64,000 nt of DNA from an uncultured Planctomycetales bacterium (GTDB lineage Bacteria > Omnitrophota > Gorgyraeia > Zapsychrales > JANLHA01): the NCBI GenBank assembly GCA_964489065.1, contig CAZAXH010000004.1, forward strand, positions 82,553 through 146,552, given 5' to 3'. The translations under genes were made by a program, and so were the position numbers. The notes below the pieces were generated by a model. That model was not told where the DNA came from and searched no databases. It saw only the letters and a list, made by a program, of their open reading frames with translations. Of this stretch, positions 10,766-59,338 are shown piece after piece (within the stretch, counting starts at the first letter, position 1; every line of letters begins with the position of its first letter).

Positions 10766-10989
10766 GTAAAAAACAATTGCGGATGCGTTTAAAAAATAGC
10801 ACCCAAGAAATATTGTGATATTTTACCGAAAAAATCCCATATTGGCAATAACTTTACCACAAAGCTCTCCCGACCGCCTTAAACAGTACAAAGACAGCCC
10901 CTTCAATATAAAAGGAACTGTCTTTGTGTTATCTCTGCCTCCCAGTATGAAACAAAAACCATAAGCCGGACAGTGTTAGCGGGGCCGCC

Positions 10990-11553: not shown

Positions 11554-11643
11554 GCCCTCCTTTTTTAACAGATTCCCGCCGTACACCCCGCTCACTCTCG
11601 TTGTCAGCAAGCCATAAAGACGAAACTGAATCTGCGCCTCATC

Positions 11644-12666: not shown

Positions 12667-12849
12667 ACTGTTACTCCTTGTTTAGGCTACAGACAATTAT
12701 AAAATCTTAATTTCCCCTATCCTGCGGCCCCGGAATGGATCGGCCGGCTGTTCAAATAATAAACACAAATGTCATCCCGTTTTTTAAACTATCCGGGTTT
12801 CATTTCTTAGGCAACGGCATTGCATAAAAGCTCGGCATGCGTGAAATCA

Positions 12850-12960
12850 AAGGTATAACCCCAAAAGCAAACGCTGGACTTTCTTGCCCCGCGAATGCTC
12901 TTTGCCATTAAAAATTATACGTTAATTCCGGACGCCAATCAAAACAATTATACAAATTAC
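12850..12960 (+). repeat. degenerate remnant (copy H) of the intergenic element's promoter-proximal module
   Basis: ggtataaccccaaaagcaaacgctggac...gccccgcgaatgc...caatcaaaacaattatac aligns to the 62803-62860 part of copy E and to 22130-22180. The core hairpin is missing. Confidence 0.35.
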
Positions 12961-13011
12961 CATTAATCCTTGCTCTTTTAAAATATAGATCCGGGAAAAG
13001 CGGCTTGCCTG

Positions 13012-13072
13012 TATATTAAAACGCCCATCTCCAAGCGGATCTCAAATATTTAAGACTACCGGGAGATGGGCG
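13012..13072 (-). terminator. rho-independent terminator downstream of the porin-like gene
   Basis: An 11-bp stem CGCCCATCTCC/GGAGATGGGCG is followed on the minus strand by TTTTAAT. Confidence 0.45.
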
Positions 13073-13114
13073 TGATTCAACTTTTTATTTAAATACTCGT
13101 GCCAGAAACAGCAA

Positions 13115-14476
13115 TTAAAAACGCACTTCCGTATAAAGAGAAACCTGGTTCGTGGGCTTCCCTGATTTAAAGGCTTTTTCCAAATAACCTCTTGGCCAAA
13201 ACCGGGCACCGACCAGCTGAAACGAAACATTTTTATTTAATTCATATTTTATATACGCATTGGCCTCTGTTGCTTTTCCTTTTTCCCCGGATATGGCCGT
13301 AACACAATCAAGCAGCGCATACCGCGTCCCGACCGTTATTTTGTCTTCCGTTGTTATGCCATACTCTTTATAAATCTTATTCTCCATCTGTTCGCCTTTT
13401 CCGCCAAAGCCATACTCCACGCCGACAAAAGGAATCTTGACGTTGACGACATCTTCGGCGTACGAATCATTTAAAACCTCGTAGGTAATATAGGCCATGG
13501 AGTAAAAACAGTCCCGGCCGATACGCCGGAAATTCTCATCCTTCCCAGGGCTGGCTAGCTTATCTCCGGAAACATAAACGTAACCCGCATTCAAATCAAT
13601 GGCCTTGTCCTCCTCTAATTTAATGGAGTAGTCGCCCTTTAACCTGGCCAGCCAACCCGTGTAATCTTTATTGGCGATATCGTCTTCCCCGGCATTAACT
13701 CCCAGGAGAAAAGCATACGCCAGGTTATCGATAAACGTTTTTCCATCACCTTTTAATGTCCAAAGGACAAGGTTAGACTTTTCGCCCAGGGTGTCATCCA
13801 AGCGCTTGCGGTAATAAGTTCCCATCCTAAAATTATGGCCTTCAAAAATCTCGTCGGTCTGGGCCTCAAGACCATAAATAAGTTCGTCATAATTTCCTTC
13901 CATGGCGATCCCGGTCCCCATCTTAGCCCGCTGCCCAAAAAAAGTGCTCCAGTTAATCTTAGCCCAATTCTTGTCCACCTTTACGGCATCAATGGCCGTC
14001 AATTCCAGAAAACGTCCGGAATGAGGTCCGTAATAGAAGAAGGCGTCCTCACTTTCCCCCATATATTGCCTTCCAAGAGTGACGCTAAAACCCTGCCAAA
14101 AATCTGTAAGCTGTAGATAGAGATTCGCCACAACCGGATCAGCCGACTCGGGGGCGTCTTCTAATTCGCTTGTATGATAAGTTTTCCGGTAATGCTGCCA
14201 ATTCTGCCAGTAGCCAAGCTCGCTCCTTAAAAGCAGGTTTTCCGTTATCTTGGAGTCCAAAGCAACCAAGGCCCTTGTTATAATGGCCCCGTCGTCGCCC
14301 CCCTTCCCGCGGTAATTAGTCATATACGTTGCCATCGTCATGATGTCACCGCTCACTTCAATCCTTTCTTCCAAATCTTGCAAAAAGTCTGCGTTGGCGA
14401 CTCCTGCCGTGGACACCATAAATCCAACAAATGTCAACACGCAAAAAAATTTTCCCGGGCTTTTCTCCATAACCAT
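13115..14476 (-). CDS. outer-membrane beta-barrel (porin-like) protein
   Basis: Signal peptide ...FMVSTAGVANA; alternating amphipathic beta-strand pattern; C-terminal ...YTEVRF with terminal Phe typical of OMP beta-barrels. Confidence 0.5.
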   Translation of the reverse strand: MVMEKSPGKFFCVLTFVGFMVSTAGVANADFLQDLEERIEVSGDIMTMATYMTNYRGKGGDDGAIITRALVALDSKITENLLLRSELGYWQNWQHYRKTYHTSELEDAPESADPVVANLYLQLTDFWQGFSVTLGRQYMGESEDAFFYYGPHSGRFLELTAIDAVKVDKNWAKINWSTFFGQRAKMGTGIAMEGNYDELIYGLEAQTDEIFEGHNFRMGTYYRKRLDDTLGEKSNLVLWTLKGDGKTFIDNLAYAFLLGVNAGEDDIANKDYTGWLARLKGDYSIKLEEDKAIDLNAGYVYVSGDKLASPGKDENFRRIGRDCFYSMAYITYEVLNDSYAEDVVNVKIPFVGVEYGFGGKGEQMENKIYKEYGITTEDKITVGTRYALLDCVTAISGEKGKATEANAYIKYELNKNVSFQLVGARFWPRGYLEKAFKSGKPTNQVSLYTEVRF

Positions 14477-16971: not shown

Positions 16972-19128
16972 TCACTCAGCCCAGTCTTTCCGCTGGAATT
17001 TTAAGACCGGCAGAAAATTGGAATATTGGTCCGTCCAGGGGCGCACCGGATCGCCAGACTGAAAAGACACGGGCTCCCATCGCAACACTTCCGTCAATTT
17101 ACGGAAACACGCCTCATCCCAAGTCACCGCCGCCCATTTAGAGAAAAACGTACCCTTCCCTTCCCCCTGGCCCTCCTGAAACGCAACCCGCGCCCCCAAA
17201 TTCACGGCTTCGACCGCCACAATCCTCCGGATATCAGCAAAATGATTCGAGAGGTGAAACAATAACACCCCTTCCGGTTTAAGGTGCGCCCGGTATTCCT
17301 GAAGGGCTTCCAGAGTCATAAGATGAACCGGCACGGAATCGCCGCTGAAGGTGTCGACGATCATGCAATCATACTGTTTGCCCCCGCTGTTCCGAAGTTC
17401 AATCCGGGCGTCCCCAACGACATGACGGATCTCCGCCCCGGAGCCAGACAGGAAGGAAAAATATGTTCGGGCAAGCCGGATGATCTCCGGATCCAACTCA
17501 TAAGAATCCACGCGCTGCCCTGCGCGGAAATAACTCATCACCGACCCCACTCCCAGCCCCAGGCTCGCGATATCATCGAAATGAAATTCCGGGGACTGTA
17601 GCACCCGGCCGACCGGCGAGTTCAGAGCATAATACGCCAGCGGGATATGGGCGCGGTTATCCAGATAGCGGACACCGTGAATGGTCGAGCCGTGCATAAA
17701 AAACCGAAACCCGGACGGCTTGTCATAAATACGGCTGATCCCGTAATAATTGCGCCCTTTGTACACATATTGTCCGCCGGCTAAAGGTTCCAACAACGCG
17801 AAAAAACTTAAAAACACCACCCCTGCTACCTTATAAACTTTCAATGAATGAAAGGCCTCATCCAGCAAAACCTGAAACAACCCTGCGACCACCAGCCATT
17901 CCACCCAGCCGCCCTGAGGAAAAAGAATATAAAGAACGATCGCGGTTAAAACAGCCAGCGCCGCGTGGGAAATCCGAAACAGGTTCTTTTCCCTGGTCAC
18001 CTGCCAAGCCAAAAGACTCACATAAATACCCATAAGGTATTCGACAAAAGAAACCGAGACAACCGGAATCATCCACGTGACCACCATGCCGCCGCAAAAG
18101 CCACCCAGGGAAAAAATAAAATAATAATACGACAGCTGCCGGGAGCCCGGCGGCCGGATATCATACACCTGCCCCTGAATAAACATGCACAGATAAAACA
18201 AGACAGCCAAAAACGCCCCCAGCCCAAACAAAACCGGTAAGACCGTCAGGTTGTAAGTGAAATATAACAAAACACTCACGCCTATCATGCCGAACGGCCG
18301 ATGGGTGATCCATGCCGGACGCCAGGGCCGCTTTTTAAAAACCAAAGCAAAAGAAAGCAGATACAACGCTAACGGAAGAATCCACAAAAGCGGGATCGGC
18401 AGAATTTCCGACGTCAGGATATTCGTGACGGATAAAAGAAGCATGACCCCAGCGGCGCCATAAAGGAACCAACCCCACGCACGGCGGGGGCCGGCCCAAG
18501 AATCCCCCTCCTTCAAACCCTGTTCATAAACCGCCGTGACCGGCACCTGCCGGGCGGCCACCAGCAGCAACCCCAGAAACAATAAATAAAATCCCCGCCA
18601 CCAGGCCTGCTGCTGCGGCAAGGTAAAGAAATATTCAAAGAAAACCGGATACGTCAGCAAACCCGAAAAAGAGCCCCAATTGGACGTCGCAAACAGCTGA
18701 TAAGGGTCGTCCCGCTCCGCCAGGCTGCTTTGCGACAGCCAGGCCTGAAAAAAAACGCTGGACGTGGACAACAAAAAAAACACCAGGCCGATTGACCAGA
18801 ACAACTGCCAAAAAATACCCAAGACCAGCGGCCAAGATGTAAGTCCGGCGGACAGGCCGATGTCTCTTCCCGGGAAAAAAAACAGCGGCAGCACAAACAG
18901 GGCCAGGTGGACATAAAGGTATCTTTTGAGATCAACGGCCCGCAGGATAATATGCATGTAAGAGTATCCGGCCAGAAGCACGACCTGAAAAAAAACCACG
19001 CATGCGCCCCAGACAAGGTATCCGCCGCCGTAATAAGGCATGATCATCTTGCCGATAATAAGTTCAATTTGAAACAACAGGAAGGAAGCAAGAAACAAAG
19101 CCGCTTTCAGCAGATAAATTTTTTTCAT
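16972..19128 (-). CDS. fused MFS-like membrane domain / spermidine-synthase-like (PABS) protein
   Basis: The N-terminal ~450 aa are polytopic. The C-terminal ~250 aa form an aminopropyltransferase-like fold (GLGVGS, YDCMIVDTFSGDSVP, LKPEGVLL). The architecture is that of the 'fused MFS/spermidine synthase' proteins. Confidence 0.7.
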   Translation of the reverse strand: MKKIYLLKAALFLASFLLFQIELIIGKMIMPYYGGGYLVWGACVVFFQVVLLAGYSYMHIILRAVDLKRYLYVHLALFVLPLFFFPGRDIGLSAGLTSWPLVLGIFWQLFWSIGLVFFLLSTSSVFFQAWLSQSSLAERDDPYQLFATSNWGSFSGLLTYPVFFEYFFTLPQQQAWWRGFYLLFLGLLLVAARQVPVTAVYEQGLKEGDSWAGPRRAWGWFLYGAAGVMLLLSVTNILTSEILPIPLLWILPLALYLLSFALVFKKRPWRPAWITHRPFGMIGVSVLLYFTYNLTVLPVLFGLGAFLAVLFYLCMFIQGQVYDIRPPGSRQLSYYYFIFSLGGFCGGMVVTWMIPVVSVSFVEYLMGIYVSLLAWQVTREKNLFRISHAALAVLTAIVLYILFPQGGWVEWLVVAGLFQVLLDEAFHSLKVYKVAGVVFLSFFALLEPLAGGQYVYKGRNYYGISRIYDKPSGFRFFMHGSTIHGVRYLDNRAHIPLAYYALNSPVGRVLQSPEFHFDDIASLGLGVGSVMSYFRAGQRVDSYELDPEIIRLARTYFSFLSGSGAEIRHVVGDARIELRNSGGKQYDCMIVDTFSGDSVPVHLMTLEALQEYRAHLKPEGVLLFHLSNHFADIRRIVAVEAVNLGARVAFQEGQGEGKGTFFSKWAAVTWDEACFRKLTEVLRWEPVSFQSGDPVRPWTDQYSNFLPVLKFQRKDWAE

Positions 19129-20071: not shown

Positions 20072-22102
20072 TTACGGTTTTAACGCCTCCGCCTGCGTGA
20101 TCAGGTCCTTAAAGCGCGGATCGTCCGGAGCCCGGTGTTGCCCCTCCTGCCAGGTTGCGATGGCGCGGGTGAAGTCATCCCTGTTGCCATAAAATTTTCC
20201 AAGCTCCACATAAGCGGCCGGATAATCCGGGTCCTTTTCCAGGGCTTTCTGGAAAAAAGACAACGCGGCCGGAGCCGCCCCAGCGGCCGCGAAGCGGCTG
20301 CCCAGAGCGGTCAACCTCCCCGCATCCGTACCCTCCGCCAGTACCCGCTGCGCCGCTTCCAGCGCCGACGGCTGCAATCCCGCCTCCAGATACAACTCCG
20401 TTAAATTATACAGGCTTTCTTCCTCATGCGGATCATATTTAAGAATATTCTGATATATTTCAATCGCGCGAAGATGCTCGCCCTGTTGCTGATACACCAA
20501 CGCCAGATTGCGGCGGGCTTCCAGCAACGCCGGATTCAGGGATTGGACTTTCAGAAAAACCTCCTGCGCCTGCTGCAGCTGCCCCGTCCGTAGATATAAC
20601 ACGCCCAGGTTGCTCCAGGTTTCGGCATATTCAGGATTCACGCCCAGGGCCTTTTCAAAATAATCCCGGGCCTCAAGGACGTTCCCCTCTTCCAGGAAAA
20701 TAAGGCCGAGATTATTCAATGTTTTATAACTCCGGGGATCCAGCCGGATAGCGTGATACAACATCTGTTTGGCGGCCCGGTAGTTCCCCACCCCCATATA
20801 CGCCGCGGCCAGATTATCATAAGGCCGCACTTTACGGGGAGATTTGCGGAGCACGTCCGTCCAGAGCGTCACCGGATTCTTCCACACGGCATTTCTCTGA
20901 TAAGTCAAAATGCCAAGCCCCGCCAGCCAAACCCCTATCACCACATAAAAAAACACACGGTTTTTAAACAGGGCCTGGAATCCTGACACGGCGAAAAGCG
21001 CAAAGCCGGTCAAAGCCAGATAAAGCCAATGCTCAAAAATCATATCCTTCCCCAGCAAAGCGCTTGACAGGAATTCCATCATCAGGCTGACAAGGAACCA
21101 AATAACGCAAAAGCTGAAAACCCGCCGCCGGTTAAACTGCCGGCACGCCCAGGCCGCCAGCCCCACGATCAGGATGATGGACAGAAGCGTCTGCCCTTCC
21201 CACACGCTTTGCGCCCGGGGGAAATCGTAATCCAAATTCTGCCGCACAGGCGCCAGGCATAACCAAAAATACGTTCTCAAAGCGTTCAAAGCCGTCAACC
21301 CGTTATTGACATGGAACCGGCCTGTGGCAAGCTGTTCCCGCAGGTCAACGATAGAAGATGACCGCTCCGCCAGCAGGCTAAAAGGGATAATAAACCAGGT
21401 CAAAAAAAACGGGGACAGCCGTTTCAGGCCCCCCAGGAGGCTCTCGTAGGAGCGGCGGATAAAAAACACGTGGATAATAAAAAGCATCAACGGCAGCGTA
21501 AAGGCGAGCTCTTTGGAAAACATCGCCAGAACCGCCGCGGCCAGGGAGGCGATATAATAATCCCGGTGGGCGGCACCGGCCCATTTGAGATAAAAAACAA
21601 TAGAAAGCAAATAAAAAAACACGGCTAAAAGCACGGCCCTTTGGGAAATATAATTGACCGCCTGGGTCTGCAAAGGATGTGCCAGGAAAACCAAAGCGGT
21701 CAACACGGCGGTGACCGCCGGCGCGCCGGCGTCAGCGGCGGAACGGCTTTCAAAAAACGGTGTCTGTAAAAGCTTCCTCACAAACACGAAGACCAAAAAC
21801 GCGTTCATAAAATGAAGCAGCAGATTGACCACATGATACCCGAAAACATCAAGTCCGCCGAACCGGTAGTTAAGCGCAAAGCTTAAACCCGTTACAAACC
21901 GGGTGTTGAAACTCGCCCATAGCGCCGGCCAATTCCAGAGAGAACGAACGGCGGGATTATGAATAATAAAGATATCGTCATCCAGGTGAAAAGTATTGTG
22001 GAGTGAGTTAGCATAAATCGTCCCGCCCAAAAGGACGATCAGGACAAAGGCGGCAACCCGGGCCCGGTCGGTAAATAACGACATTTTCTCTTGATTTTGC
22101 AT
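20072..22102 (-). CDS. PMT/TMTC-like membrane protein with C-terminal TPR repeats, paralog 3
   Basis: Polytopic N-terminal domain with HLDDDIFIIHNPAV loop motif; C-terminal ~250 aa TPR repeats. The start is trimmed to MQNQEK (GGAG 9 nt upstream) because 22125-22222 is a repeat remnant. Confidence 0.65.
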   Translation of the reverse strand: MQNQEKMSLFTDRARVAAFVLIVLLGGTIYANSLHNTFHLDDDIFIIHNPAVRSLWNWPALWASFNTRFVTGLSFALNYRFGGLDVFGYHVVNLLLHFMNAFLVFVFVRKLLQTPFFESRSAADAGAPAVTAVLTALVFLAHPLQTQAVNYISQRAVLLAVFFYLLSIVFYLKWAGAAHRDYYIASLAAAVLAMFSKELAFTLPLMLFIIHVFFIRRSYESLLGGLKRLSPFFLTWFIIPFSLLAERSSSIVDLREQLATGRFHVNNGLTALNALRTYFWLCLAPVRQNLDYDFPRAQSVWEGQTLLSIILIVGLAAWACRQFNRRRVFSFCVIWFLVSLMMEFLSSALLGKDMIFEHWLYLALTGFALFAVSGFQALFKNRVFFYVVIGVWLAGLGILTYQRNAVWKNPVTLWTDVLRKSPRKVRPYDNLAAAYMGVGNYRAAKQMLYHAIRLDPRSYKTLNNLGLIFLEEGNVLEARDYFEKALGVNPEYAETWSNLGVLYLRTGQLQQAQEVFLKVQSLNPALLEARRNLALVYQQQGEHLRAIEIYQNILKYDPHEEESLYNLTELYLEAGLQPSALEAAQRVLAEGTDAGRLTALGSRFAAAGAAPAALSFFQKALEKDPDYPAAYVELGKFYGNRDDFTRAIATWQEGQHRAPDDPRFKDLITQAEALKP

Positions 22103-22124
22103 CAGCGGGAATTCTCCGGTCAAC

Positions 22125-22262
22125 AAAAAAGCATGAACCCCAAAGCAAGCCCTAGACCCAATGAACCGCAGCAACCTGCGGGGTATTACACACACATCCT
22201 TCGACCCGTTCGCCTGGCTCACTAATATTTTTCTCAGAGCCGGCGGCCTCTTCCCCCGGTCT
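22125..22262 (+). repeat. degenerate copy (G) of the intergenic element (promoter-proximal module plus decayed core)
   Basis: tgaaccccaaagcaagccctagacccaatgaaccgcagcaacctgcgggg is followed by catccttcgacc...ggtcttgggtgtattctaatggataagacggc. The first part aligns to copy E at 62803-62860. Confidence 0.4.
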
Positions 22263-49180: not shown

Positions 49181-51130
49181 ATGGATTTATTGAAAGGAAT
49201 GCACATGAAGCCCCCGATAAGGACAACAATCCGGCAGGCGCTGCTATCAGGGAAAGGGACAGGGCTTTTACTCGCCGCCATAACTTTCCTGATTTATTTC
49301 CATGCCTTTCCCAACGGATTCTTACTGGATGATTACAATTTTGTGGAACAAGAATATCAGGAAATATTTAAAACTCCGCAGGATTTCTTCGTGCACATTC
49401 CGCCCCGAACGCATCATTACGCCCCCCTTTATTACTGGACAAACACCGTCCTCTTTCGTCACTTTCAAGCTTATCCATATAGGATGCGCTTTATCCTGTG
49501 GATGGCGTTTCTCGCGAACGTGCTTTTTTTCTTTCAATCCATCCATCTCCTCCTGAAGGACCAAAAAACGGCTTTTCTCTGCGCGGCCTTGTTCGCTATC
49601 CATCCCATTCACGCATTCTATATTCATATGCCCAGCGGCGGTTTTGTGTTCTTCTACACGCTATGCCTGCAAGCGAGTCTGTTCTGGATGTGGAAATATC
49701 TGTCCGGCGCCGCAAGAAATACGGGCCTCTATCTCGCAAGCCTCTTATGCTTCCTGGCCGGGCTTCTCTTCTTTGAGGCCGCCGCCCTCTACCCCCTGTA
49801 TCTTTTGATTTTCATGAGATTTATCAGCACAGAGCGTTGGGGGGTTCACCTCAAACGCGCCCTGCCGTTTTTTACTCTTTCTCTAATCGACGTGTTTCTC
49901 TGGAGCTGGATATGCCGGGGAGAATCCGGTTTTCCGCAAAGAATCCTCCTGCTCGGCCTTTCTGTCCCCCGCTATACAGCGTCTGTAACGCGCCTGATAT
50001 TCTGGTATATGTCGCGGCTGCTCTATCCGGAAGGGCTCGTATTTATTTATAATATGCCCCCGGCACAACAAGAAATCTGGCTCTGGAACGGGCTCGCCGG
50101 ACTTCTATTGTTCTTATTCGTTCTTCTCATGAAACGGCGGCCTAAAGATATAAAAACCCTGGCGCTGGCCTGGTTTCTTACCGGCTGTCTCTTTGTCTTT
50201 CCCGCCAGTTTGACGCATGCTTATATGGGCATGGTGATCGAAACCCATTGGATATATTTCTCAAGCATAGGCCTGTTTCTTCTTTTAACTCTGGGCCTTA
50301 TCCGGGTTCTGAAAAAAATTCGGCCTGGTTTTCAATACGCTTGTTTAGGATTGACCGCGATCTATTTCATGGCCTGGACGCAGACCTATCATGTCATGGC
50401 GCGGTCAGAAAAAACTTACTGTGAATACTGGCTGAAAGTTTGCCCGGCGAACCTTATCCCCTTGATCAATTTATCCAAAATCTACGCCGAAGAAGGCCAG
50501 TTGACCCGGGCCACGGATTACGCCCGGCGCGCATTCCTGCTCGGCCGCGATTGTGTCCCCGCGACCTATGAAAACCTGGCTATGGTCTTAACTTTCAAAG
50601 GGGATGACGCGCAAGCGGAGGACGTCATCACCCGGGCCGCCGGCAAAGGATTCACGTCGCCTTGTTTACTCAACACCCTCGGCGTTATTCACCGCCGTCA
50701 AGGGAACAGCCTCACCGCGGAGCAGGATTTTCTCACCGCCATTAAGCAGGCACCGCGGTACGTTTTGCCCAGGTTAAATTTGGCCAAACTCTATAGTTCC
50801 TCCGGGCGGGAAAAGGAAGCCGTCCGCTGTTATGAAACCGCCCTGTCGCTCCAGCCTGATAAAAAACAAATCTTTCATATTCAACGCCATCTCATGGTGC
50901 TGTATTTAAAACAGAATGCCCCCGACCGATATCACGGGCTTGTCCAGAAGGCGCTGACCCAAAATCCTGTCCAGCGGACATACCTCCGATTAAGCCGTAC
51001 TCTTGAAACATATCATTACTGGCGTGAAGCCCAAGCCTTGTTAAACCAGGCCCAGGAACATTACCCGGAAGATGCTTCCTTACAACAATATTACCGGGAT
51101 TTTATGAAAAGATATGACGCCGCCCGGTGA
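49181..51130 (+). CDS. PMT/TMTC-like membrane protein with C-terminal TPR repeats, paralog 4
   Basis: Polytopic N-terminal domain with FLLDDYNFVEQEY loop motif; C-terminal TPR repeats. Only + strand member of the family here. The exact start is uncertain (Met at 49181 or 49193). Confidence 0.65.
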   Translation: MDLLKGMHMKPPIRTTIRQALLSGKGTGLLLAAITFLIYFHAFPNGFLLDDYNFVEQEYQEIFKTPQDFFVHIPPRTHHYAPLYYWTNTVLFRHFQAYPYRMRFILWMAFLANVLFFFQSIHLLLKDQKTAFLCAALFAIHPIHAFYIHMPSGGFVFFYTLCLQASLFWMWKYLSGAARNTGLYLASLLCFLAGLLFFEAAALYPLYLLIFMRFISTERWGVHLKRALPFFTLSLIDVFLWSWICRGESGFPQRILLLGLSVPRYTASVTRLIFWYMSRLLYPEGLVFIYNMPPAQQEIWLWNGLAGLLLFLFVLLMKRRPKDIKTLALAWFLTGCLFVFPASLTHAYMGMVIETHWIYFSSIGLFLLLTLGLIRVLKKIRPGFQYACLGLTAIYFMAWTQTYHVMARSEKTYCEYWLKVCPANLIPLINLSKIYAEEGQLTRATDYARRAFLLGRDCVPATYENLAMVLTFKGDDAQAEDVITRAAGKGFTSPCLLNTLGVIHRRQGNSLTAEQDFLTAIKQAPRYVLPRLNLAKLYSSSGREKEAVRCYETALSLQPDKKQIFHIQRHLMVLYLKQNAPDRYHGLVQKALTQNPVQRTYLRLSRTLETYHYWREAQALLNQAQEHYPEDASLQQYYRDFMKRYDAAR

Positions 51131-51236: not shown

Positions 51237-51698
51237 TTATCCTTCCAGCACCAATAACTGATCTTTCGCCGCCTTAGCCGGAGCCCAGAACCACGGCCCG
51301 TTCGGGTCCCAACACTGGCCATACGTGAATTCCTCGACCAACATCTTAAACGCCGCCTTGGCGTCCTCTTCCCGGCCCAGCTCAAGCAAGGCTTTGCCTT
51401 TGATAAACAAACTTGTCGCCACATCATTCAGCGCCCAATAATTCGTGTGAATCTCTTCCGTGGCTCCGGCGGGATAGTCCTTCAGAGTCGCCTGCATCTG
51501 CCGCGCCTGGTCCGCATAAAGTTCGATACATTTATCTGTATAGACAACCGCTCCCTCGTAATCCTTACCGTTGAGGGCGCCCCAGGCTTTCACCGTGAGG
51601 GTGGATGATTTGTAGTCCCCGAAATCCAGCGCCCGCGCGACCGTCGAGGCGGCAAGCAGGCTCCCCGCAACCGTCAAAATAATTAAATACCGTTTCAT
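51237..51698 (-). CDS. hypothetical secreted protein
   Basis: Signal peptide MKRYLIILTVAGSLLAASTVARA; ~130-aa helical/TPR-like soluble domain; no family recognised. The start is trimmed to MKRYL. Confidence 0.4.
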   Translation of the reverse strand: MKRYLIILTVAGSLLAASTVARALDFGDYKSSTLTVKAWGALNGKDYEGAVVYTDKCIELYADQARQMQATLKDYPAGATEEIHTNYWALNDVATSLFIKGKALLELGREEDAKAAFKMLVEEFTYGQCWDPNGPWFWAPAKAAKDQLLVLEG

Positions 51699-51763
51699 GA
51701 TACGCCCCTTTCCTTTCATGGTTTTTTGTTGTTTCTGCCCTTCCCAAACAGGGCCCATCGCCT

Positions 51764-53005
51764 CTAAAGCTCTCCGGCGAATTTTTCCTTGATCACCTCA
51801 TAAGCCGCCCGGGGTCGCAGGATGTCCAACTGGCCTGGAACCGGATTGGGCTCCAAAGCCATCACCCCGTACCACTCTTGATTCATATAACCGTCCGGCC
51901 CCGCGTGAGCTCCCGGCGTATACCCGCAGTCATGCGTGACGGCCGACGGAGCCCACTCCCCCTCATCTTTCCACCATCCGTCGGCGTACTGGAACACCAC
52001 CCCGCCTATATTCGGGCCGCCATGAGCCGCGTTATAACCCAAAATCGTGTCCCAACAACCGGCGATATACCTGGCCTGCATGTCCGGACGCTCTTTACCA
52101 TTCTCCGGATGATCCGCTCCAAGAACAAACCACGCGTCCGTGCCGAATTCCGTTATCAAGACCGGCTTAGCGGACCGCTTCTGGTACTGCAGAAAAAAAT
52201 TGTTTGTCTTAGATCCGAAATCTTCCCCACGATACACGTTGCATCCATGGATATCCACGTCGGGTAAGACGTCATCCGTCGCATGGATCCCAATGTCACC
52301 CAAGTCCGCGGAAACCATCATCACCGGGTGAAAAGAATCTCCTTCCACTGCCTTAATTTTCCTAGCCAGCGTATTTATAAATTTATAAAAAGCGGCCGCC
52401 TGATCCTCCCTCCGGCAGGATTCGTCCGCGCCTTTGTAAGTACAGAAAGCCATTTCGTTCTCGTTGGCGATGCCCCACATTAAGATCGCCGGGTCATCCT
52501 TGAATTCCGCGACATAGTCCAGGATGTCCTTTTCCAAGGAAGACAGATCGCCGTTCACATAATCCGACTGATGCGGAATCCAGTAACCGGCAATGACCTT
52601 TAACCCCTGTTCGTTAGCTTTCTTAAGAAGAGCCGGGGTAACCTTTCCCCATGTCCGGATCGTGTTGGCATTCATGCCTTTGATCAAAGGCAGGTCCTGG
52701 TCTAAGAGAAGAGGATTCTCATACTCCTGCTCCCCCGGGCAATCAAATTGCGGCTGCCCGTCCGTGGTGCCGCGGTACCAGCATAAGCCGTACTGGGAGG
52801 GGAACGACCCGATCGGCGTGTTAGAATACCCCATCCCTTTCACCAGAAACGGCTCATACCGGCCGTCCCGGTCAAAATCCGTCAATAACTGCCGCCCTTC
52901 GACTTTGACATAAGGATACGCCCAACAGGAAGAAACCTCTGATAAGAAAAAACCCACAATCGCCCCAACCACTATTCCGTATTGAATCCCTGTCCTTTTC
53001 ATCAT
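51764..53005 (-). CDS. secreted clan GH-A TIM-barrel glycoside hydrolase/transglycosylase, GH72-like (short paralog)
   Basis: Signal peptide; FLVKGMGYS...QDLPLIKGMNANTIRTWGKV...GLKVIAGY...AILMWGIANENE (acid/base NE)...KPVLITEFGTDAW (nucleophile TExG). Order and spacing parallel fungal Gas1/Gel (FYIRGVAYQ...RDIPYLKKLNTNVIRVY...FFAGNEV...FFSEYGC). Confidence 0.55.
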   Translation of the reverse strand: MMKRTGIQYGIVVGAIVGFFLSEVSSCWAYPYVKVEGRQLLTDFDRDGRYEPFLVKGMGYSNTPIGSFPSQYGLCWYRGTTDGQPQFDCPGEQEYENPLLLDQDLPLIKGMNANTIRTWGKVTPALLKKANEQGLKVIAGYWIPHQSDYVNGDLSSLEKDILDYVAEFKDDPAILMWGIANENEMAFCTYKGADESCRREDQAAAFYKFINTLARKIKAVEGDSFHPVMMVSADLGDIGIHATDDVLPDVDIHGCNVYRGEDFGSKTNNFFLQYQKRSAKPVLITEFGTDAWFVLGADHPENGKERPDMQARYIAGCWDTILGYNAAHGGPNIGGVVFQYADGWWKDEGEWAPSAVTHDCGYTPGAHAGPDGYMNQEWYGVMALEPNPVPGQLDILRPRAAYEVIKEKFAGEL

Positions 53006-53239
53006 AATATCCTCCTTTCAAGTTCAAGATCTGCTCTCCGACAAAGCTCCCTTGCGGCCATAAAAAAGCACCACCTCCTTTAAGATGAAGATTGCAAAGG
53101 AGACGGTGCCTTGCTATACTAATAATCGCAAAACAGTCCTGAGGACCGGCTCCCATGCTATCCTCGGGTTACTTACGGTGTGCGGGTGGCCGCCCGTACG
53201 CCGTTTTTTTTCCCCAAGATCAAACCTGCCGCTTCCCAT

Positions 53240-54283
53240 TTAGAAATTATACTCAATCCTCGATTGCGGTATCCAAGTGTGCCATTCCGCCTCCAACTGC
53301 CGGAGCCCACCCGGATAATAACGCTCGATTGCCCGGTGTCCAGGAAAATTTTTATGATGAAATCGCCTGAGTTCGTGGATCAGCCCGGCAAACGCGGCCC
53401 GGCCTTTTTCCGTCGACAATAAAAACGTTACCAAAGACCAGGATATAATGCTCATCGGGCCATTCGCCTGTTCGTTACGTTGCCGCCACTGCTCGTCCGT
53501 CAAACGGAGGAAATCTTCGAGGGGCATAAGCACTCCGGCCTGCAGCCATTTTTTCATCCGTTGGTCCTTATGCGTCTGCGGCCGCACAACCACAGAATCC
53601 GCCTCCAGAGTGCCGTACGCAAAAAACTCCGCCAGCCCCTCCTCGATCCAGGGTGGGCATCGGGAAATTTGCCGGCGCAAAATAGCGCGGCTGGCTTCGT
53701 GATAAAGGATACGCAGCATGTTGCGTTCATTTTCGTTTTTCCAAAGGACCATTTCTTTCTTTTCCAAGGAATAAAAGCCGGCGTCCGACCGGGAGGCCGA
53801 GTCCTGCCCCAGATAGGATTGATACGCACCGAAATCCCCGAAGATACGGGTTTTAAACATGCGTTCCCGGTTAAAGTCCAGGCCAAACACATCTTCAAAA
53901 ACAATGAACATTTTGGAAATCACACACACGATTTCCTCCCGCACCTCGGGCGAAAGAGTGTGCCCTTCGGAAAGGATCTCCACATCAACCGGCGTAAACG
54001 GCCTGCCTGGGCTTCCCGGCTGGGGAACACGCGGTGGATAGGGGGCCCGCGTCCCGACTTTCGTGACTACAGGGGTCTCCGTTTCGATCTTCTGAATAAG
54101 GCGTTTCTGCAGGGAAAAAATCCTCCGGTCGGTTTTGATCTTCAAGGCGTCATCCGTTTCTTCCACAATCGTTCCTTCCACAATTTTTCCGGACCGCAAG
54201 TAAAACGTGTCTCCGACCGCCAGGGCCGGCTGCCCCAGGAGCGCCGTCCACACAATGCCCGCTATAAGGCAATGTCTTTTCAT
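53240..54283 (-). CDS. secreted DUF1570-like protein (possible peptidase-like fold, HEXXH not intact)
   Basis: Signal peptide; N-terminal beta-rich segment (FYLRSGKIVEGTIVEE); central ...LRILYHEASRAILRRQ..; C-terminal helical region. The family assignment is tentative. Confidence 0.4.
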   Translation of the reverse strand: MKRHCLIAGIVWTALLGQPALAVGDTFYLRSGKIVEGTIVEETDDALKIKTDRRIFSLQKRLIQKIETETPVVTKVGTRAPYPPRVPQPGSPGRPFTPVDVEILSEGHTLSPEVREEIVCVISKMFIVFEDVFGLDFNRERMFKTRIFGDFGAYQSYLGQDSASRSDAGFYSLEKKEMVLWKNENERNMLRILYHEASRAILRRQISRCPPWIEEGLAEFFAYGTLEADSVVVRPQTHKDQRMKKWLQAGVLMPLEDFLRLTDEQWRQRNEQANGPMSIISWSLVTFLLSTEKGRAAFAGLIHELRRFHHKNFPGHRAIERYYPGGLRQLEAEWHTWIPQSRIEYNF

Positions 54284-56262
54284 GGTTTCCTCCCCGGCTC
54301 CGGGACCGTTTGATCATAAACGGGAAAAACATCGAAAAGGACGTTCCCATACACAAGCCCTCCCCGCCCGTCACTGACGAGACTGATCACATTGACCATT
54401 GTTTGCTCCGATACGTCCGGAGGGATATACGTCACTTCCGGCCCGTCGCCCTGAACGCTTCCCAAGCTGGGAAGCCACCGGTAAACCAAAGTGTCCCCGT
54501 CTTCATCCCGGGCCTGCACTTTCAACATCCCGTTCTTGTTCTCCTGAACAGATCGCGGCGTGATCACCGGCGAAGAAATAATAACGGGCGCACGGTTATT
54601 CCCCTGCCGCTGGGGAACAAAGTTAATATCGGCCTGTCCATACATCTGCGCCGATACCGTTGAAACCGGGCGGGCATTCCCATAAGCGAATGTCGAACTT
54701 TCAATCCGGATATCCCCGCAGGTCAACGGCAAGGGGGAGATGTCATAAGAATGGCTGCCGCCGCTCCCCTCCAGAGTCACCGCCACGGTGTAGGTGTAGC
54801 TCGGGATAACGTCTACCGGAGAAATGTCGCTGTACGACCATGTGCCGGCTGACGTCACCTTCGTCTGCGCCAGCAACACCCCCGTCATCTTATTCCACAA
54901 GGAGACCACTTTGGTCCCGTTAAACAAACCGCCCAGTTGAGTGATCTGTCCCGGCTGCAGAGGCGTGAAATGATACCCGGCCGTGTAATTCCAGGCAACG
55001 TCCTTTCTTAGGGTTCCTTTGCCGAAACTCTGCCAGGGCCGCTCCGGAGGGCGATCCGTGAATTTCTGCTGCATGACGGTATAAGCGAGCCGCGGTTTAA
55101 CCCAATCGTATTTTTGCCCTTCCTCCGGCGGCCTCAAAGCCATAAGACCGAACCACTCCGGGTTGGTAAACCCGTCAGGGCCGGAATAAAAACCAACGAT
55201 ATAATTCTGATCGTGCGTCGCGCAGGTGGGGGACCACTCGCCCTTATACTGCCACCAACTGTCGGCGAAAGGAGAGACAACCCCGCCCAGGACAAAACCA
55301 CCGCGCCCGCCGGAATATTTCAATAACGTGTCCCACTCTTCGGCGAGAAAAGAAGCCTGGAGGTCCTCCCGTTCAACCCCGCGCTCCGGCCGTTTTCCGT
55401 CCAGGACAAACCAGGCGTCCACACCGAATTCGGAGATTAAAAGCGGTTTGGCCGAACGGTTGGCGTACAGTTCAAAGAAATTGCTGAAATCCTGGCCCCG
55501 GTAAACATTACATCCGTGCAGATCCACTTCCTTTAACCGTTCATCACTGGCCGCCTGGCCGATATCCCCCAGATCCGCGGAGATCATCATCACGGGATGA
55601 AAGGAATCGCCCTCTATTGTCTTAATCTGGCGGGCTAAATAATTAACAAAACCATAATAAGCCTTGGCCTGCTCCGCCCGGCTGCAGTCGCTTTGGGCCC
55701 CCTGAAAATTACAGAGATCCGTTTCATTCTGGTACCCCACGACCCACATCAGCAACGCTGGATGATCCTTAAAGGCCTGAACATAACGCAGGAAATCCCG
55801 CTCCACCCCGGAGAGATCGCCGTTCACAAAGTCCAGGTTATGATCAAGCCAGTAGCCGGCGATCACCTTTAACCCCAGTTCCCGGGCTTTATCCATCAAT
55901 GGCGACGTCACCTTGCCCCATGTCCGGATTGTGTTGGCGTTCATGGCTTTTATAATAGACAAATCCCTCTCGATCATCACCGGGTCCTCATATTCTTTAA
56001 CCCCGGGGCAGTCAAATTGGGGTTTCCCGCTGACAAGGCCTTTATACCAACACAGTCCATATTCGCTGGGGAACGCCCCCGTGGGGATAGCGTTATACCC
56101 GACGCCCTTGACAAAGAAAGGTGTATACGTCCCGTCCTGATCATAATCAGCGACCAACTGACATCCTTCCACCCGGACATGCTGATAGGCCCACACCGAA
56201 GATGTCCAAAACAGAACGCTCCCTAATACAGCCGCCGATACCCGCCCGGCCCTCTTCTTCAT
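54280..56262 (-). CDS. secreted clan GH-A TIM-barrel glycoside hydrolase/transglycosylase, GH72-like (long paralog with ~300-aa C-terminal beta-rich extension)
   Basis: Paralogous to 51764..53005 (FFVKGVGYN...ANTIRTWGKVT...LMWVVGYQNE...KPLLISEFGVDAW), plus a C-terminal Ig-/CBM-like region. Its stop overlaps the start of 53240..54283 by 4 bp. Confidence 0.55.
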   Translation of the reverse strand: MKKRAGRVSAAVLGSVLFWTSSVWAYQHVRVEGCQLVADYDQDGTYTPFFVKGVGYNAIPTGAFPSEYGLCWYKGLVSGKPQFDCPGVKEYEDPVMIERDLSIIKAMNANTIRTWGKVTSPLMDKARELGLKVIAGYWLDHNLDFVNGDLSGVERDFLRYVQAFKDHPALLMWVVGYQNETDLCNFQGAQSDCSRAEQAKAYYGFVNYLARQIKTIEGDSFHPVMMISADLGDIGQAASDERLKEVDLHGCNVYRGQDFSNFFELYANRSAKPLLISEFGVDAWFVLDGKRPERGVEREDLQASFLAEEWDTLLKYSGGRGGFVLGGVVSPFADSWWQYKGEWSPTCATHDQNYIVGFYSGPDGFTNPEWFGLMALRPPEEGQKYDWVKPRLAYTVMQQKFTDRPPERPWQSFGKGTLRKDVAWNYTAGYHFTPLQPGQITQLGGLFNGTKVVSLWNKMTGVLLAQTKVTSAGTWSYSDISPVDVIPSYTYTVAVTLEGSGGSHSYDISPLPLTCGDIRIESSTFAYGNARPVSTVSAQMYGQADINFVPQRQGNNRAPVIISSPVITPRSVQENKNGMLKVQARDEDGDTLVYRWLPSLGSVQGDGPEVTYIPPDVSEQTMVNVISLVSDGRGGLVYGNVLFDVFPVYDQTVPEPGRKP

Positions 56263-56331
56263 AATGATCTCCTTGTCTTTTTAAAAATACCCTCTTGCTT
56301 TCCTCGGCGGACCGGGGCAACGGCCCGACGA

Positions 56332-58029
56332 TCATTTTTTAAAGTCACTGGTTTCCGGGAGGACAAAACCGGATAAGCGCAACCGCCTGTTCAAAGAACC
56401 CCGATCCAACGCATCCAGACGGATCAAGACCGCCTCTTTCAACCAAGACTGCTGCCCCCCGGGTAAAGAGTCCCCGGGGTTGAGGGAAGAAAAATCATAC
56501 CGTTTAACCTTAAAATCCAGCCGCCCTGCCCCCGCCGGCCAAGCCAGGTCAATTCTGGTTACCGGCTGAGCAAGGGTGTCCACCAAAAACGCTTCCTTGC
56601 GGACAGGATGAACCAAAACGTACGTCCGGGTAAAATCCAAGGACGTGTCTTCTCCATAAGGGACAGCCCCTGGCCTGAAACCCGATGACACGCTCAAGGA
56701 CTTTTCTCCGACAATAACCGTAACCCCAGAGGGTTTTTCGACGATATCAAGAATAACGCTTTCCGTGCCTCCCGCCAGGCTTTTCGCCCCCCGGATCAGA
56801 GGCATTTTCACGCCGATGCGATATTCATAGACATCAAACGTCCCCACGCCTTCATAGGTCCCGCTCTGTTTCTGATACCGGTCATAAACCGGTTCCGGCA
56901 GCCGCAAAACAGCATACCGGGGCTCCTCCCCGTCGTAAGGATTCATCACGACGAAATCTTGTAGGGCATGCTGAATCGAGTCCTGCAACCGGCGGCTTGA
57001 AAGCAAAACGACAGGAGAACTCAAAGCCCCGGAAGAAAACACCTTAACACCGGGACCATACGAAACAAACGGGGTGGGCCCCACCCGACGCAATATGGCA
57101 AACAGGCCGGGGTGAAGGCCCAGCACCTGAACAGGCATCGATACGACGCGATCCCTGGTTAAACGGTTCCCGGAAACCATGTTGCCCGCAACCGTCATCT
57201 GGCCTGTCCGGATAACTGTTTGCGGCGGGTTAATCTGGACGGGCCTTCGCTCCAGCGCGCCCTGCGGCAGGGCAACAAAGGCCACAGGGATCAACACAAT
57301 CCCGGCAATCATCCCCAGAACCGTCCGTGAGGTCCGGCGGGTCTTGTATTGATACGCTATTAAAAACGCGCATACAAAAATCATAAGCGCTTGATGTGAC
57401 AGCGACACGGCGGTCATCCCGGGGATGAGAAAACCGTCCTCTCCTCCTCGCTCGGCCATAGCCCCGCCGAGAAACAGCCCCCTAGCCAAGACAGAAAACA
57501 AAGCCCCCGCGGTCAGCCCCGCTAAAGCCGCGGCCATTCCGGTCAAAACAAATTTATGAAATTTTTCCGTAACGCCGGCCATTAAAAATACCGGAGCAAC
57601 ACAAGCGCTTTTTTCAATCGCGATCAGCACGGCCGCAGGCAGAATGTCCTTCCAGCCAAGCCCATTAACCGCCAGCACCACGATCTCCAGCAGCAAGGGG
57701 AGGCCGACAAAAAGACTTCCCACCAATACAACTTTGGCCCGGAGTAAAGAAAAGCGGGAAACCGGCCTGGTCATCCAAAATGCTGTTGTGCCAACCGTCG
57801 GATCGGCCTGAATAATCAAAGGGACAAAGATGATCATTAAAACCGCCTGCAAGACCGACAGGCTCTGCAAGACCAAGGGCTGGATGATTCTAAACATCAA
57901 TTGAGTGCTCAACAGCGTCCCTCCAAGCAAGGCGATCCCCTGGGTTACGCCGACTACGCCTAACCACGACAAAAGGATAAAACGGAACCGTTTGAGATCT
58001 TTTTCCAAGACTAAAACAGCATGGGGCAT
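56332..58029 (-). CDS. ABC-2-type transporter permease with large C-terminal extracytoplasmic domain
   Basis: Six TM helices in the first ~260 aa, then a ~300-aa soluble domain. Paired with the upstream ATPase gene. Confidence 0.55.
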   Translation of the reverse strand: MPHAVLVLEKDLKRFRFILLSWLGVVGVTQGIALLGGTLLSTQLMFRIIQPLVLQSLSVLQAVLMIIFVPLIIQADPTVGTTAFWMTRPVSRFSLLRAKVVLVGSLFVGLPLLLEIVVLAVNGLGWKDILPAAVLIAIEKSACVAPVFLMAGVTEKFHKFVLTGMAAALAGLTAGALFSVLARGLFLGGAMAERGGEDGFLIPGMTAVSLSHQALMIFVCAFLIAYQYKTRRTSRTVLGMIAGIVLIPVAFVALPQGALERRPVQINPPQTVIRTGQMTVAGNMVSGNRLTRDRVVSMPVQVLGLHPGLFAILRRVGPTPFVSYGPGVKVFSSGALSSPVVLLSSRRLQDSIQHALQDFVVMNPYDGEEPRYAVLRLPEPVYDRYQKQSGTYEGVGTFDVYEYRIGVKMPLIRGAKSLAGGTESVILDIVEKPSGVTVIVGEKSLSVSSGFRPGAVPYGEDTSLDFTRTYVLVHPVRKEAFLVDTLAQPVTRIDLAWPAGAGRLDFKVKRYDFSSLNPGDSLPGGQQSWLKEAVLIRLDALDRGSLNRRLRLSGFVLPETSDFKK

Positions 58030-58040
58030 AGGTTCTTCTC

Positions 58041-58949
58041 CTATATATTCAACATCTTTAACTGCCTGGCCTGGATTAAAAATATTTCTTTCAGGGACAT
58101 CCCCTGGACATCAATGGCGGAAACTGACGGCAAACCCTTCCGGTATTCCTTTTCACTCTCTCCTAGCCGGTAGGCATCGTCCACAAAACAGACAAACCGC
58201 CCTTCCTGTTGAGGCAACAGCCAATTCACCGGGAAAGGGATATCCGATTCCGGAGATTTCTGCAAAGTCACATTGATTCTCTTAAACCGGGCCTGCAGGG
58301 ATCCCGTGGTTTCACTCAGCCGCAATTGCCCTTTATGAAGAAACCCGACCCAGTCCGCCAGATGCTCCACTTCCTCTATATCGTGTGACGATATAAAAAT
58401 CGTCCATTCCTCTGTTTCGGTCAACGCCATAATTCCATCCATCAAATCCTTGCGGGCCACCGGATCCAGGCCGCTGAAGGGTTCATCTAAAATCAGCAGC
58501 TTCGGGCGATAGGCCAAAGAAGCGATAAGCGCTGCCTTCATTTTCATTCCCCGGGATAACTGTTCCATAGGTTCATCCACGGGAAGATCAAACTGCCTGG
58601 TCAGCGACTGGCAAAAGCCCTCATCCCACTGGGGATACATGGGCCGGCAATAATCAAAAAGCTCATCTGCCGTCATCCCCTCCGGCAACACCTGGTTCTC
58701 CGACACATACCCGATCTGCTGGAACGCCTTCGCGTCCAAATCCGTGGAAGCCACGCCCCAGATCTTCACCGTACCACTGGTAGGCCGCAGAATGTTAACA
58801 ATAGTTTTTATCGTGGTTGTTTTCCCGGCTCCGTTAGGCCCCAGATACGCGTAAATGCTGCCCGCCGGGACATCCAAGTCCACTCTCGCCAAAACGGTCC
58901 TAGCTCCAAATTTCTTCGTTAAGCCTCTGCTTTCTATAACGGTCTTCAT
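58041..58949 (-). CDS. ABC transporter ATP-binding protein
   Basis: Walker A GPNGAGKTT, signature LSRGMKMK, Walker B LLILDEPFSGLD, plus a ~80-aa C-terminal extension. Confidence 0.9.
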   Translation of the reverse strand: MKTVIESRGLTKKFGARTVLARVDLDVPAGSIYAYLGPNGAGKTTTIKTIVNILRPTSGTVKIWGVASTDLDAKAFQQIGYVSENQVLPEGMTADELFDYCRPMYPQWDEGFCQSLTRQFDLPVDEPMEQLSRGMKMKAALIASLAYRPKLLILDEPFSGLDPVARKDLMDGIMALTETEEWTIFISSHDIEEVEHLADWVGFLHKGQLRLSETTGSLQARFKRINVTLQKSPESDIPFPVNWLLPQQEGRFVCFVDDAYRLGESEKEYRKGLPSVSAIDVQGMSLKEIFLIQARQLKMLNI

Positions 58950-59338
58950 GGCGTCTCTTTTCTGTTATTAATGTCCCACTGGCGCTGAACCGCATCCAGC
59001 AGTTCCTTTTTAGCTATGGAAAGCCGTTTCGCTTCCACAACCAGTCGTTCCACTTCGTTCTGCAGGATTGCCCCCCGTTGCTCCTGGTTCCCCAGGCTTA
59101 ATTCCGATACAACGCTGCCGATCCCGGGCTTCACCTGAAGCAGCCGTTCATTCACCAGGTGAGAAACCACTTTTTGAGCCGTATTGGGATTGATGCGCAG
59201 TTCCCGGCTCATTTCCCGAACAGAAGGAAACCGGTCTCCCGGTTTTAGGTGGCCGGCAACGATGGATTTCTTCACGGCGTAAATGACCTGTTCGTAAATC
59301 GGCTCACCTGGTTTTAATGTAACATCAAAATTAATCAT
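58946..59338 (-). CDS. GntR-family transcriptional regulator (YtrA-like, short)
   Basis: The wHTH reads GDRFPSVREMSRELRINPNTAQKVVSHLVNERLL. At 130 aa it heads the ABC operon, the typical YtrA arrangement. Confidence 0.85.
   Translation of the reverse strand: MINFDVTLKPGEPIYEQVIYAVKKSIVAGHLKPGDRFPSVREMSRELRINPNTAQKVVSHLVNERLLQVKPGIGSVVSELSLGNQEQRGAILQNEVERLVVEAKRLSIAKKELLDAVQRQWDINNRKETP

Follow-up and report, generated by a model that had tools for sequence, protein, structure and literature searches.

In the window, a 64,000-nucleotide stretch of contig CAZAXH010000004.1 (assembly GCA_964489065.1), seven open reading frames (ORFs) follow one another head to tail on the minus strand (positions 51237-59338), in a locus that belongs to a Candidatus Omnitrophota bacterium. 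With moderate confidence, we read this locus as a YtrA-type GntR regulator and an exporter-type ATP-binding cassette (ABC) module followed by four secreted proteins, among which the shorter of two glycoside hydrolase (GH)-like proteins (413 amino acids [aa]; 51764-53005) is an active endo-beta-glucanase and its longer paralog (660 aa; 54280-56262) is non-hydrolytic or altered in its chemistry. In such a system, the short GH would act as a retaining endo-beta-glucanase on extracellular beta-glucan, with E182 as acid/base and E286 as nucleophile, and its substrate would, as a best guess, be a beta-1,3 or mixed-linkage beta-glucan. The small TPR protein encoded downstream would work with the short GH, the barrel of the long paralog would bind the same glycan, and the Ig-like C-terminal domains of the long paralog would present the glycan or anchor the system, with the ABC module being co-regulated with the secreted proteins. 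What appears to be new, as far as sequence comparison can indicate, is a large unclassified clan GH-A family that includes a conserved pseudo-catalytic paralog and is accompanied by a dedicated TPR partner.

Placement of the GH proteins within clan GH-A

The two GH-like proteins are paralogs (56% identity over 410 aa, E 8e-169), and the proposal of two paralogous clan GH-A barrel proteins, made in a preliminary description of this DNA (the initial annotation), was borne out. The AlphaFold2 (AF2) model of the short GH (predicted local distance difference test [pLDDT] score, 92.7) is a single (beta/alpha)8 barrel ending at the C-terminus, and the hallmarks of clan GH-A are in place: the barrel itself, an N-E acid/base motif after beta4, and a Glu nucleophile after beta7. 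In phmmer searches against PDB sequences, GH158(Pro) was the first match of both proteins (9e-11 for the short GH and 2.8e-9 for the long GH), followed by a 537-aa protein, LaGH157 according to the fold search, with E-values of 8e-6 and 0.029, respectively. A family profile built from 49 members and searched against PDB sequences likewise gave GH158(Pro) (1.3e-29), LaGH157 (9e-23), and BuGH158 (6e-20), with GH2 glucuronidases (~1e-15) and the fungal enzymes Gas2 (1e-12) and Gel4 (2e-12) at lower ranks. The structure search placed LaGH157 first (31.7, with 297 aligned residues at 23% identity), followed by a GH2 galacturonidase (28.8), GH158(Pro) (28.0), BuGH158 (27.1), and a GH5 mannanase (26.1), Gas2 and Gel4 occupying ranks 10-11 (25.7); the Foldseek order agreed (LaGH157 2e-15, GH158 2e-13, Gas2 at rank 22). 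LaGH157 is the closest solved structure, and its alignment extends over the full length of the barrel, including the WWK motif and the nucleophile E224. GH157 and GH158 are clan GH-A families of endo-beta-1,3-glucanases (PMC10229575, PMC7157763, PMC13195107). The combined profile and fold rankings therefore identify clan GH-A barrels with bacterial laminarinases as their nearest characterized relatives, and the two GHs are most likely members of a large unnamed clan GH-A family related to GH157 and GH158.

The window proteins differ in several respects from both of these families. GH157, represented by LaGH157 of Labilibaculum antarcticum (PDB 9FZ9/9G4N/9G5G) and by BcellWH2_01931, comprises endo-beta-1,3-glucanases that share 20-23% identity with the window GHs, and LaGH157 carries extra C-terminal domains within its 537 aa. 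The GH157 enzymes sit in glucan utilization loci of Bacteroidota (PMC10229575), and their genes, unlike those of the window GHs, are not located beside YtrA-ABC modules. The GH158 enzymes (GH158(Pro), PDB 9ORO/9P25; BuGH158, PDB 6PAL) are endo- or processive beta-1,3(4)-glucanases with 20-27% identity to the window GHs; here, the alignment covers strands beta2-beta7 only, and the N-terminal hairpin and beta1 motif of the window family are missing from GH158. A C-terminal Ig-like domain shapes the cleft in GH158 (PMC7157763), whereas no Ig-like domain was detected in the short GH, whose sequence ends with the barrel. With the family profile, the top 150 representatives of the window family score at least 365 bits, compared with 84-106 bits for GH157 and GH158 (84 bits for LaGH157), and this gap argues for a distinct family.

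The Pfam comparison proposed in the initial annotation, PF03198 (GH72) versus other GH families, yielded matches to GH2_C (PF02836) only, and these were weak (22.8 bits for the short GH against a cut-off of 21, and 16.8 bits for the long GH). Since GH2_C was also found in 47 of the 49 family members (best 3.6e-16), the proteins might be taken for GH2-like exo-glycosidases of the beta-galactosidase, beta-glucuronidase, or beta-mannosidase type. We regard this as hardly credible for the following reasons: (i) the N-terminal sugar-binding (GH2_N) and Ig-like domains of GH2 are absent before the barrel, whose strands start at about residue 33, right after the signal peptide; (ii) the profile and structure searches rank GH157 and GH158 first; and (iii) the carbohydrate-binding modules (CBMs) CBM11 and CBM30, which are fused to some family members, suggest polymeric glucans. 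Because Pfam holds neither a GH157 nor a GH158 model, GH2_C serves as the default catch-all.

The family is large. At E<=1e-3, its profile recovered 7,874 representatives (50% clusters), a number that falls to 1,508 at E<=1e-30, and a scan of GTDB species genomes with a 15-sequence alignment returned 452 relatives. The best 80 of these 452, all from metagenome-assembled genomes (MAGs), belong mostly to Candidatus Omnitrophota, with others from Planctomycetota, Elusimicrobiota, Chloroflexia, Hydrogenedentota, Caldiserica, and several archaeal MAGs. Among the deposited names that we saw, family members go by "hypothetical protein" or carry unrelated labels. Many members are large and have several domains, reaching 3,478 aa, with CBM30 and CBM11 adjoining the GH domain in the giant members and PKD domains also occurring together with family GH domains. 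CBM30 and CBM11 bind beta-1,4 and mixed-linkage glucans. Should the placement hold, more than 1,000 sequence clusters would form one uncharacterized clan GH-A family, annotated only as "hypothetical" or weakly as GH2 or GH72, with nearly all of them coming from uncultured lineages (Omnitrophota, Planctomycetota, Elusimicrobiota, DPANN, and other archaea). A function for one member would then extend to all and would clarify the carbon sources or target surfaces of the Omnitrophota; apart from that, the locus is a rather ordinary one for secreted glycosidases and demonstrates no new mechanism.

Two side observations concern the spread and architecture of the family. The relatives in archaeal MAGs (Woesearchaeota, Nanoarchaeota, Hadarchaeota, and Methanosarcinales; loci L038, L045, L046, L050, L052, and L061) show 31-34% identity, and their occurrence suggests inter-domain transfer or binning contamination. 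Fusions to pretoxin-HINT/intein-like, type I dockerin, F5/8-C, CARDB, BACON, and CBM30/CBM11 domains were seen among eight proteins (P0035 and P0050; P0033, P0034, P0038, and P0039; P0058 and P0122), and one family member combines an ILEI domain with a CHU_C (type IX secretion) signal.

Relation to fungal GH72 enzymes

In the initial annotation, both GHs were described as bacterial GH72-like enzymes, with a motif order mirroring that of the fungal GH72 family more closely than typical bacterial GH5 or GH2 enzymes. The motif order is real, but it is common across clan GH-A, and GH157 and GH158 are closer; what had been seen are therefore clan GH-A features rather than marks of GH72. Neither window protein matches PF03198 at E<=1, and no GH72 chain was returned by phmmer searches of the two GHs against all PDB sequences. 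With GH157 and GH158 ahead in both the profile and fold searches, the GH72 assignment is very unlikely to hold, and the comparison with Gas2 that had been suggested as a structural check went the same way, given the ranks of Gas2 and Gel4 reported above. The fungal beta-1,3-glucanosyltransferases of GH72 (Gas2, PDB 2W61/2W62; Gel4, PDB 8PE1) belong to the same clan and resemble the window family in their N-terminal ~110 residues and motif order; GH72 is nonetheless not the nearest family by either profile or structure, and it is a more distant clan relative than GH157 and GH158. Our literature search found no report of GH72 in Omnitrophota.

A partial GH72 signal is present elsewhere in the family. 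The GH72 model was matched by 24 of the 49 family members at E<=0.1, and the PF03198 gathering score of 25.9 bits was reached by 6 of 9 individually scanned members: P0032 (35.5 bits, profile positions 20-276), P0039 (31.8), P0037 (31.4), P0023 and P0031 (both 29.9), and P0033 (exactly 25.9). For P0032, GH72 was the sole model over its cut-off. The signal is strongest in the first ~110 family residues (VKI-G-x-F...FFIKGVGYQ...NTIRVY), the part aligned with Gas2 residues 10-113, and Gas2 E176, Y244, and E275 align with the family motifs GNE, NVY, and SEFG, respectively. According to the initial annotation, best matches to GH2 or GH5 combined with a lack of any GH72 similarity would have spoken against a GH72 origin; the outcome lies halfway, with this partial signal remaining in family members.

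It is on these N-terminal and catalytic alignments, the PF03198 scores of family members, and a homolog at locus L007 located beside polysaccharide export genes that one could build a case for both GHs as bacterial GH72-type beta-1,3-glucanosyltransferases remodeling the cell's own surface glycan. We consider this very unlikely: besides the lack of any PF03198 match in the window proteins themselves, the long paralog has lost the acid/base Glu, which GH72 enzymes require for both steps of the reaction, most genomic contexts of the family are catabolic, and no glucan synthase was seen at the locus. A bolder proposal, which we rate as rather unlikely, is that of an undescribed clan GH-A family bridging GH157/GH158 and fungal GH72 and counting among the closest prokaryotic relatives of Gas/Gel, in which the paralog with Y-Q at the acid/base position would be an acid/base-less beta-glucan lectin or a transglycosylase/ligase-type enzyme working on the cell surface with the active hydrolase and a dedicated TPR partner. 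In any case, the partial GH72 signal bears on the origin of the fungal cell-wall glucanosyltransferases.

Catalytic residues and the long paralog

The catalytic set of the short GH is intact, comprising N181-E182 (52460-52465), Y258 (52232-52234), and E286 (52148-52150). In the family alignment (short GH numbering), E286 and Y258 are invariant, N114, T115, R117, W177, H226, N256, R259, W344, and W345 are nearly invariant, and the GNE acid/base motif (N181-E182) is found in 43 of the 49 members. E182 and E286 align with E143 and E229 of GH158(Pro) (chain indices 135/221; residue numbers from PMC13195107). The acid/base motif also aligns with the "INE" of LaGH157 and with Gas2 E176, and E286 falls on LaGH157 E224, which is mutated in 9G4N. 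The short GH has a signal peptide with a possible lipobox (VSSC).

The long GH differs at precisely this site. Both GHs had been expected to carry an NE acid/base pair and a TEFG-type nucleophile Glu; the nucleophile is indeed kept in both (E286 in the short GH and E278, at 55429-55431, in the long GH), and the acid/base pair is present in the short GH, but the long GH has Y177-Q178 (55729-55734) at this position in a gapless alignment with the short GH and GH158, with Q178 aligned with the acid/base Glu of GH158(Pro). The Y-Q pair occurs in 5 of 6 orthologs (including P0005, P0006, P0008, and P0009), and P0007 has Y-E. In the related enzyme BuGH158, the N136A, E137A, and E220A mutants were all inactive (PMC7157763). 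Since both the acid/base Asn and Glu are lost while the nucleophile and the rest of the site are kept, the long GH most likely binds glycan without hydrolyzing it or has an altered enzymatic chemistry, as opposed to being a second hydrolase. The protein is not decaying: among its orthologs, identity is 48-85%, with the barrel better conserved than the C-terminal half. This C-terminal region contains an Ig-like Big_9 domain (E 0.0046), and DUF4082 was recorded in orthologs.

An N-E pair does occur two residues past Q178, at positions 179-180. As a displaced acid/base of the long GH, N179-E180 was rejected as the default assignment because most family members have Asn at this position and P0008 has Ala.

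Retaining GHs deficient in the acid/base include the chitinase-like lectins of GH18 and the GH1 myrosinase, in which Gln takes the place of the acid/base. The long GH resembles these proteins in that the fold, the nucleophile, and most site residues are kept and in having Gln for the acid/base, and Q178 is also the counterpart of the Gln in the Gas2 E176Q variant engineered for crystallography (2W61). In contrast to these acid/base-deficient GHs, the long GH also lacks the preceding Asn (Y177), and E180, two residues on, might compensate. The conserved acid/base-less paralog would be a naturally occurring example of a glycosidase that became a binding protein or a protein of altered chemistry.

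Genomic contexts and neighboring genes

The same gene order is found beside leuS in five related Candidatus Omnitrophota genomes (L001, L004/L015, L006, L013, and L014), and the locus is real; the identical or near-identical proteins deposited are named "hypothetical protein [Candidatus Omnitrophota bacterium]." To compare contexts, the seven window proteins were searched by tblastn against 89 loci. The module of GntR, ABC ATPase, and membrane protein adjoins a family GH in three settings only: the close clade, L005 (where the GntR is 65% identical to the window GntR and the gene order is different), and L009/L010 (where the GntR is 32% identical and other genes intervene). It is missing from ~70 of the 77 species-level loci, and a GntR-ABC link as a general feature of the family was rejected for this reason. 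As a separate observation, L009/L010 carries at 1326-9539 a tight operon of GntR, ABC ATPase, a 647-aa membrane protein, MORN-like, Imm_superinfect-like, and UPF0259-like proteins, and a family GH sharing 37% identity with the short GH; this provides an independent second link of YtrA-ABC to the GH family.

In a commoner arrangement, a solute-binding protein and two sugar ABC permeases are accompanied by a TPR-GH fusion, a CBM-like protein, another family GH, and a TPR protein. The importer was seen in at least eight family loci and the CBM-like partner in fifteen. L084 (Omnitrophota STB_25; 1709-13926), which looks like a glycan utilization locus, holds this full set, with a TPR-GH fusion of 809 aa, a CBM-like protein of 384 aa and two repeats, and a family GH of 433 aa. 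It also has a gene of the GH116 beta-glucosidase family (DUF608, E 2.6e-78) that was seen in this locus only; L076, L080, L081, L085, and L089 resemble L084. The CBM-like neighbor at L084 had no PDB, Pfam, or NCBIfam match and therefore offers no clue to the substrate. Taken together, the nearest families, these contexts, and the fused CBMs point to extracellular beta-glucan depolymerization.

The initial annotation had included a small secreted protein at the end of the locus, and this held up: it is TPR-like (TPR_6, E 9e-6), with a signal-peptide-like N-terminus. Its gene (ORF 51237-51758) most likely starts at M21 (ATG at 51696-51698) and not at the first ATG, given the AAAGGAAAGGGG ribosome-binding site upstream and the calling of orthologs at 153 aa, which corresponds to 51237-51698 in the window. 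In the L084 fusion, the N-terminal part is homologous to this protein (36% over 122 aa, E 4e-23), related loci have it in the same position, and it also adjoins family GHs in L007, L008, L016, and L089. Being adjacent or fused to family GHs, the TPR protein is the most conserved partner of the enzyme. In Omnitrophota SMBSF21 (L007/L008/L016), the genes of the family GH and the TPR partner lie between pseudopilin (N_methyl) genes, a 1,746-aa DUF2341 protein, and polysaccharide export genes (Bac_transf, Poly_export, and Wzz).

Two other roles have to be considered for secreted GHs in this setting. If the GHs processed a polysaccharide exported by the cell itself, as PslG, BcsZ, and PelA do, the GntR-ABC module would serve as the exporter or as a stress-responsive control. 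The module standing beside family GHs in the window clade, L005, and L009/L010 would fit such a role, as would the L007 family GH adjoining the Bac_transf, Poly_export, and Wzz genes. We consider it quite unlikely, since most species-level loci have no GntR-ABC neighbor, the membrane protein is unlike known polysaccharide ABC-2 permeases, there are no glycosyltransferase genes inside the operon, and the Sec signal peptides of the GHs make ABC export unneeded. Alternatively, the GHs could be weapons or attachment factors directed at surface glycans of a host or prey, in keeping with the predatory or parasitic lifestyle that has been proposed for many Omnitrophota. Surface proteins of Omnitrophota have been proposed to degrade prey cell walls (10.1101/2023.11.21.568195; PMC10066038), and both the giant multidomain surface proteins with dockerin, pretoxin-HINT, F5/8-C, and PKD fusions and the enrichment of the family in Omnitrophota, with further members in DPANN archaeal MAGs, are in line with this. 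On balance, this role appears unlikely: the genome, at ~3.3 Mb as judged from relatives, is not that of an ultra-small episymbiont, the importer and GH116 contexts fit nutrition, and beta-1,3-glucan is not known as a prey glycan in such habitats. It concerns the biological role, however, and is compatible with the same enzymology.

Several points weigh against an active endo-beta-glucanase accompanied by a non-hydrolytic paralog, even as the reading that we favor. The proposed specificity is carried over from relatives that share 20-27% identity, the structures of GH2 exo-glycosidases and GH5 mannanases are almost as close, and substrates vary widely within clan GH-A. Among glucans, CBM11 and CBM30 favor beta-1,4 or mixed-linkage over pure beta-1,3 types. 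The window locus contains neither a sugar importer nor GH116, with an exporter-type ABC module instead, and its role may differ from that of the catabolic loci. E180, which 5 of 6 orthologs have, might conceivably serve the long paralog as a displaced acid/base. Finally, the family, set apart here by Pfam, PDB-profile, and fold comparison, may already be classified in CAZy.

At the upstream end of the locus, the regulator, the ATPase, and the membrane protein form the module already referred to. The GntR regulator (130 aa; 58946-59338) was identified in the initial annotation as GntR/YtrA, with which its PF00392 match (E 7.8e-13 over residues 15-77) and YtrA size agree. It has the winged helix, the short C-terminus without an effector domain, and the adjacent ABC gene of the YtrA subfamily, its best NCBIfam match being PmtR (5.6e-12, under its cut-off). 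A promoter-like sequence, TTGACT-17-CATAAT, lies upstream at 59409-59381. The gene overlaps by 4 bp that of the ABC ATPase (302 aa; 58041-58949), which was likewise recognized correctly (PF00005, E 5.8e-24) and is of the exporter type (PmtA/DrrA/GldA-like; NCBIfam PmtA 3.6e-46 and DrrA 1.5e-43, both under equivalog cut-offs). The third gene encodes a clade-specific membrane protein (565 aa; 56332-58029), previously labeled as an ABC-2 permease with a large extracytoplasmic domain. Approximately seven hydrophobic transmembrane (TM) helices within residues 3-253 (hydrophobic segments at 17-254) and a beta-rich C-terminal domain of ~310 aa were recovered, but the ABC-2 label was not, as the protein has no Pfam or NCBIfam match at E<=1. 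By the positive-inside rule, the Arg/Lys distribution in the loops places the C-terminal domain probably outside the cell. Homologs form only six clusters, all within the same Omnitrophota clade, and an AF2 model from six homologs was unreliable (pLDDT 39); the protein is presumed to be the permease partner of the ABC ATPase. The module resembles PmtR-PmtABCD of S. aureus and ytrABCDEF of B. subtilis in its 130-aa effector-less GntR, whose gene overlaps that of the ABC ATPase. PmtR and PmtA are the best NCBIfam matches of the regulator and ATPase, with scores far under the equivalog cut-offs. Unlike those systems, the window has an orphan membrane partner with a large C-terminal domain and secreted GH-like proteins downstream.

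Between the two GH genes lies the gene of a secreted DUF1570-like protein (347 aa; 53240-54283), which overlaps the long GH gene by 4 bp. Its earlier naming as DUF1570-like and secreted is supported by a signal-peptide-like N-terminus and a PF07607 match (E 4.3e-4), although the score of 21.0 bits falls just short of the cut-off of 22; no PDB sequence match was found. Such N-termini are present on all four downstream proteins (long GH, DUF1570-like, short GH, and TPR). Orthologs have HEASH...(D/E)EGLAEFF, a gluzincin-like zinc site (HEASH in L001, L006, and L015), and the sequence points to an ancestry among gluzincin-type metallopeptidases. The window and L014 have HEASR (R199, CGC codon at 53687-53689), which indicates that the peptidase site is degraded in that sublineage; with the score under the cut-off and no intact HExxH, the protein does not qualify as a DUF1570 zinc peptidase. 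As a side observation, two overlapping genes of this sublineage, long GH and DUF1570-like, both encode proteins without canonical catalytic residues.

The seven genes are co-directional, as had been noted, and the distances between consecutive genes are -4, 11, 69, -4, 234, and 5 bp, so the short gaps or 4-bp overlaps described earlier apply to five junctions and not to the 234-bp gap (53006-53239) before the short GH. This gap contains a GC-rich hairpin of 13 bp at 53175-53204, flanked by an A-run (minus strand) and a T-run (plus strand), with an AGGAGG ribosome-binding site downstream, before the short GH. An Rfam scan of the window returned two tRNAs only and nothing within the gap. On the minus-strand transcript, the hairpin might serve as an attenuator or processing site that lies after the DUF1570-like gene and before the short GH. 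It resembles a plus-strand intrinsic terminator, and no plus-strand gene ends there. Promoter-like minus-strand sites at 53342-53315 and 53275-53246, within the 3' end of the DUF1570-like gene, make it possible that the short GH and TPR genes are transcribed from a start of their own.

Elsewhere in the window, the minus-strand ORF at 16972-19128 (718 aa) matches no Pfam family at E<=1e-4. Three proteins with TM and TPR regions in a TMTC-like architecture are encoded at 49181-51130 (plus strand), 20072-22222 (minus strand), and 6590-8383 (minus strand), and a link of the GHs to TMTC-like glycosyltransferases had been suggested on their account. Their Pfam matches are to TPR models only, with none to PMT or PMT_2, and this link is therefore unsupported. 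The multi-TM N-terminus was read in the 49181-51130 protein and is presumed in the other two. The 49181-51130 protein is syntenic in L001 and L006.

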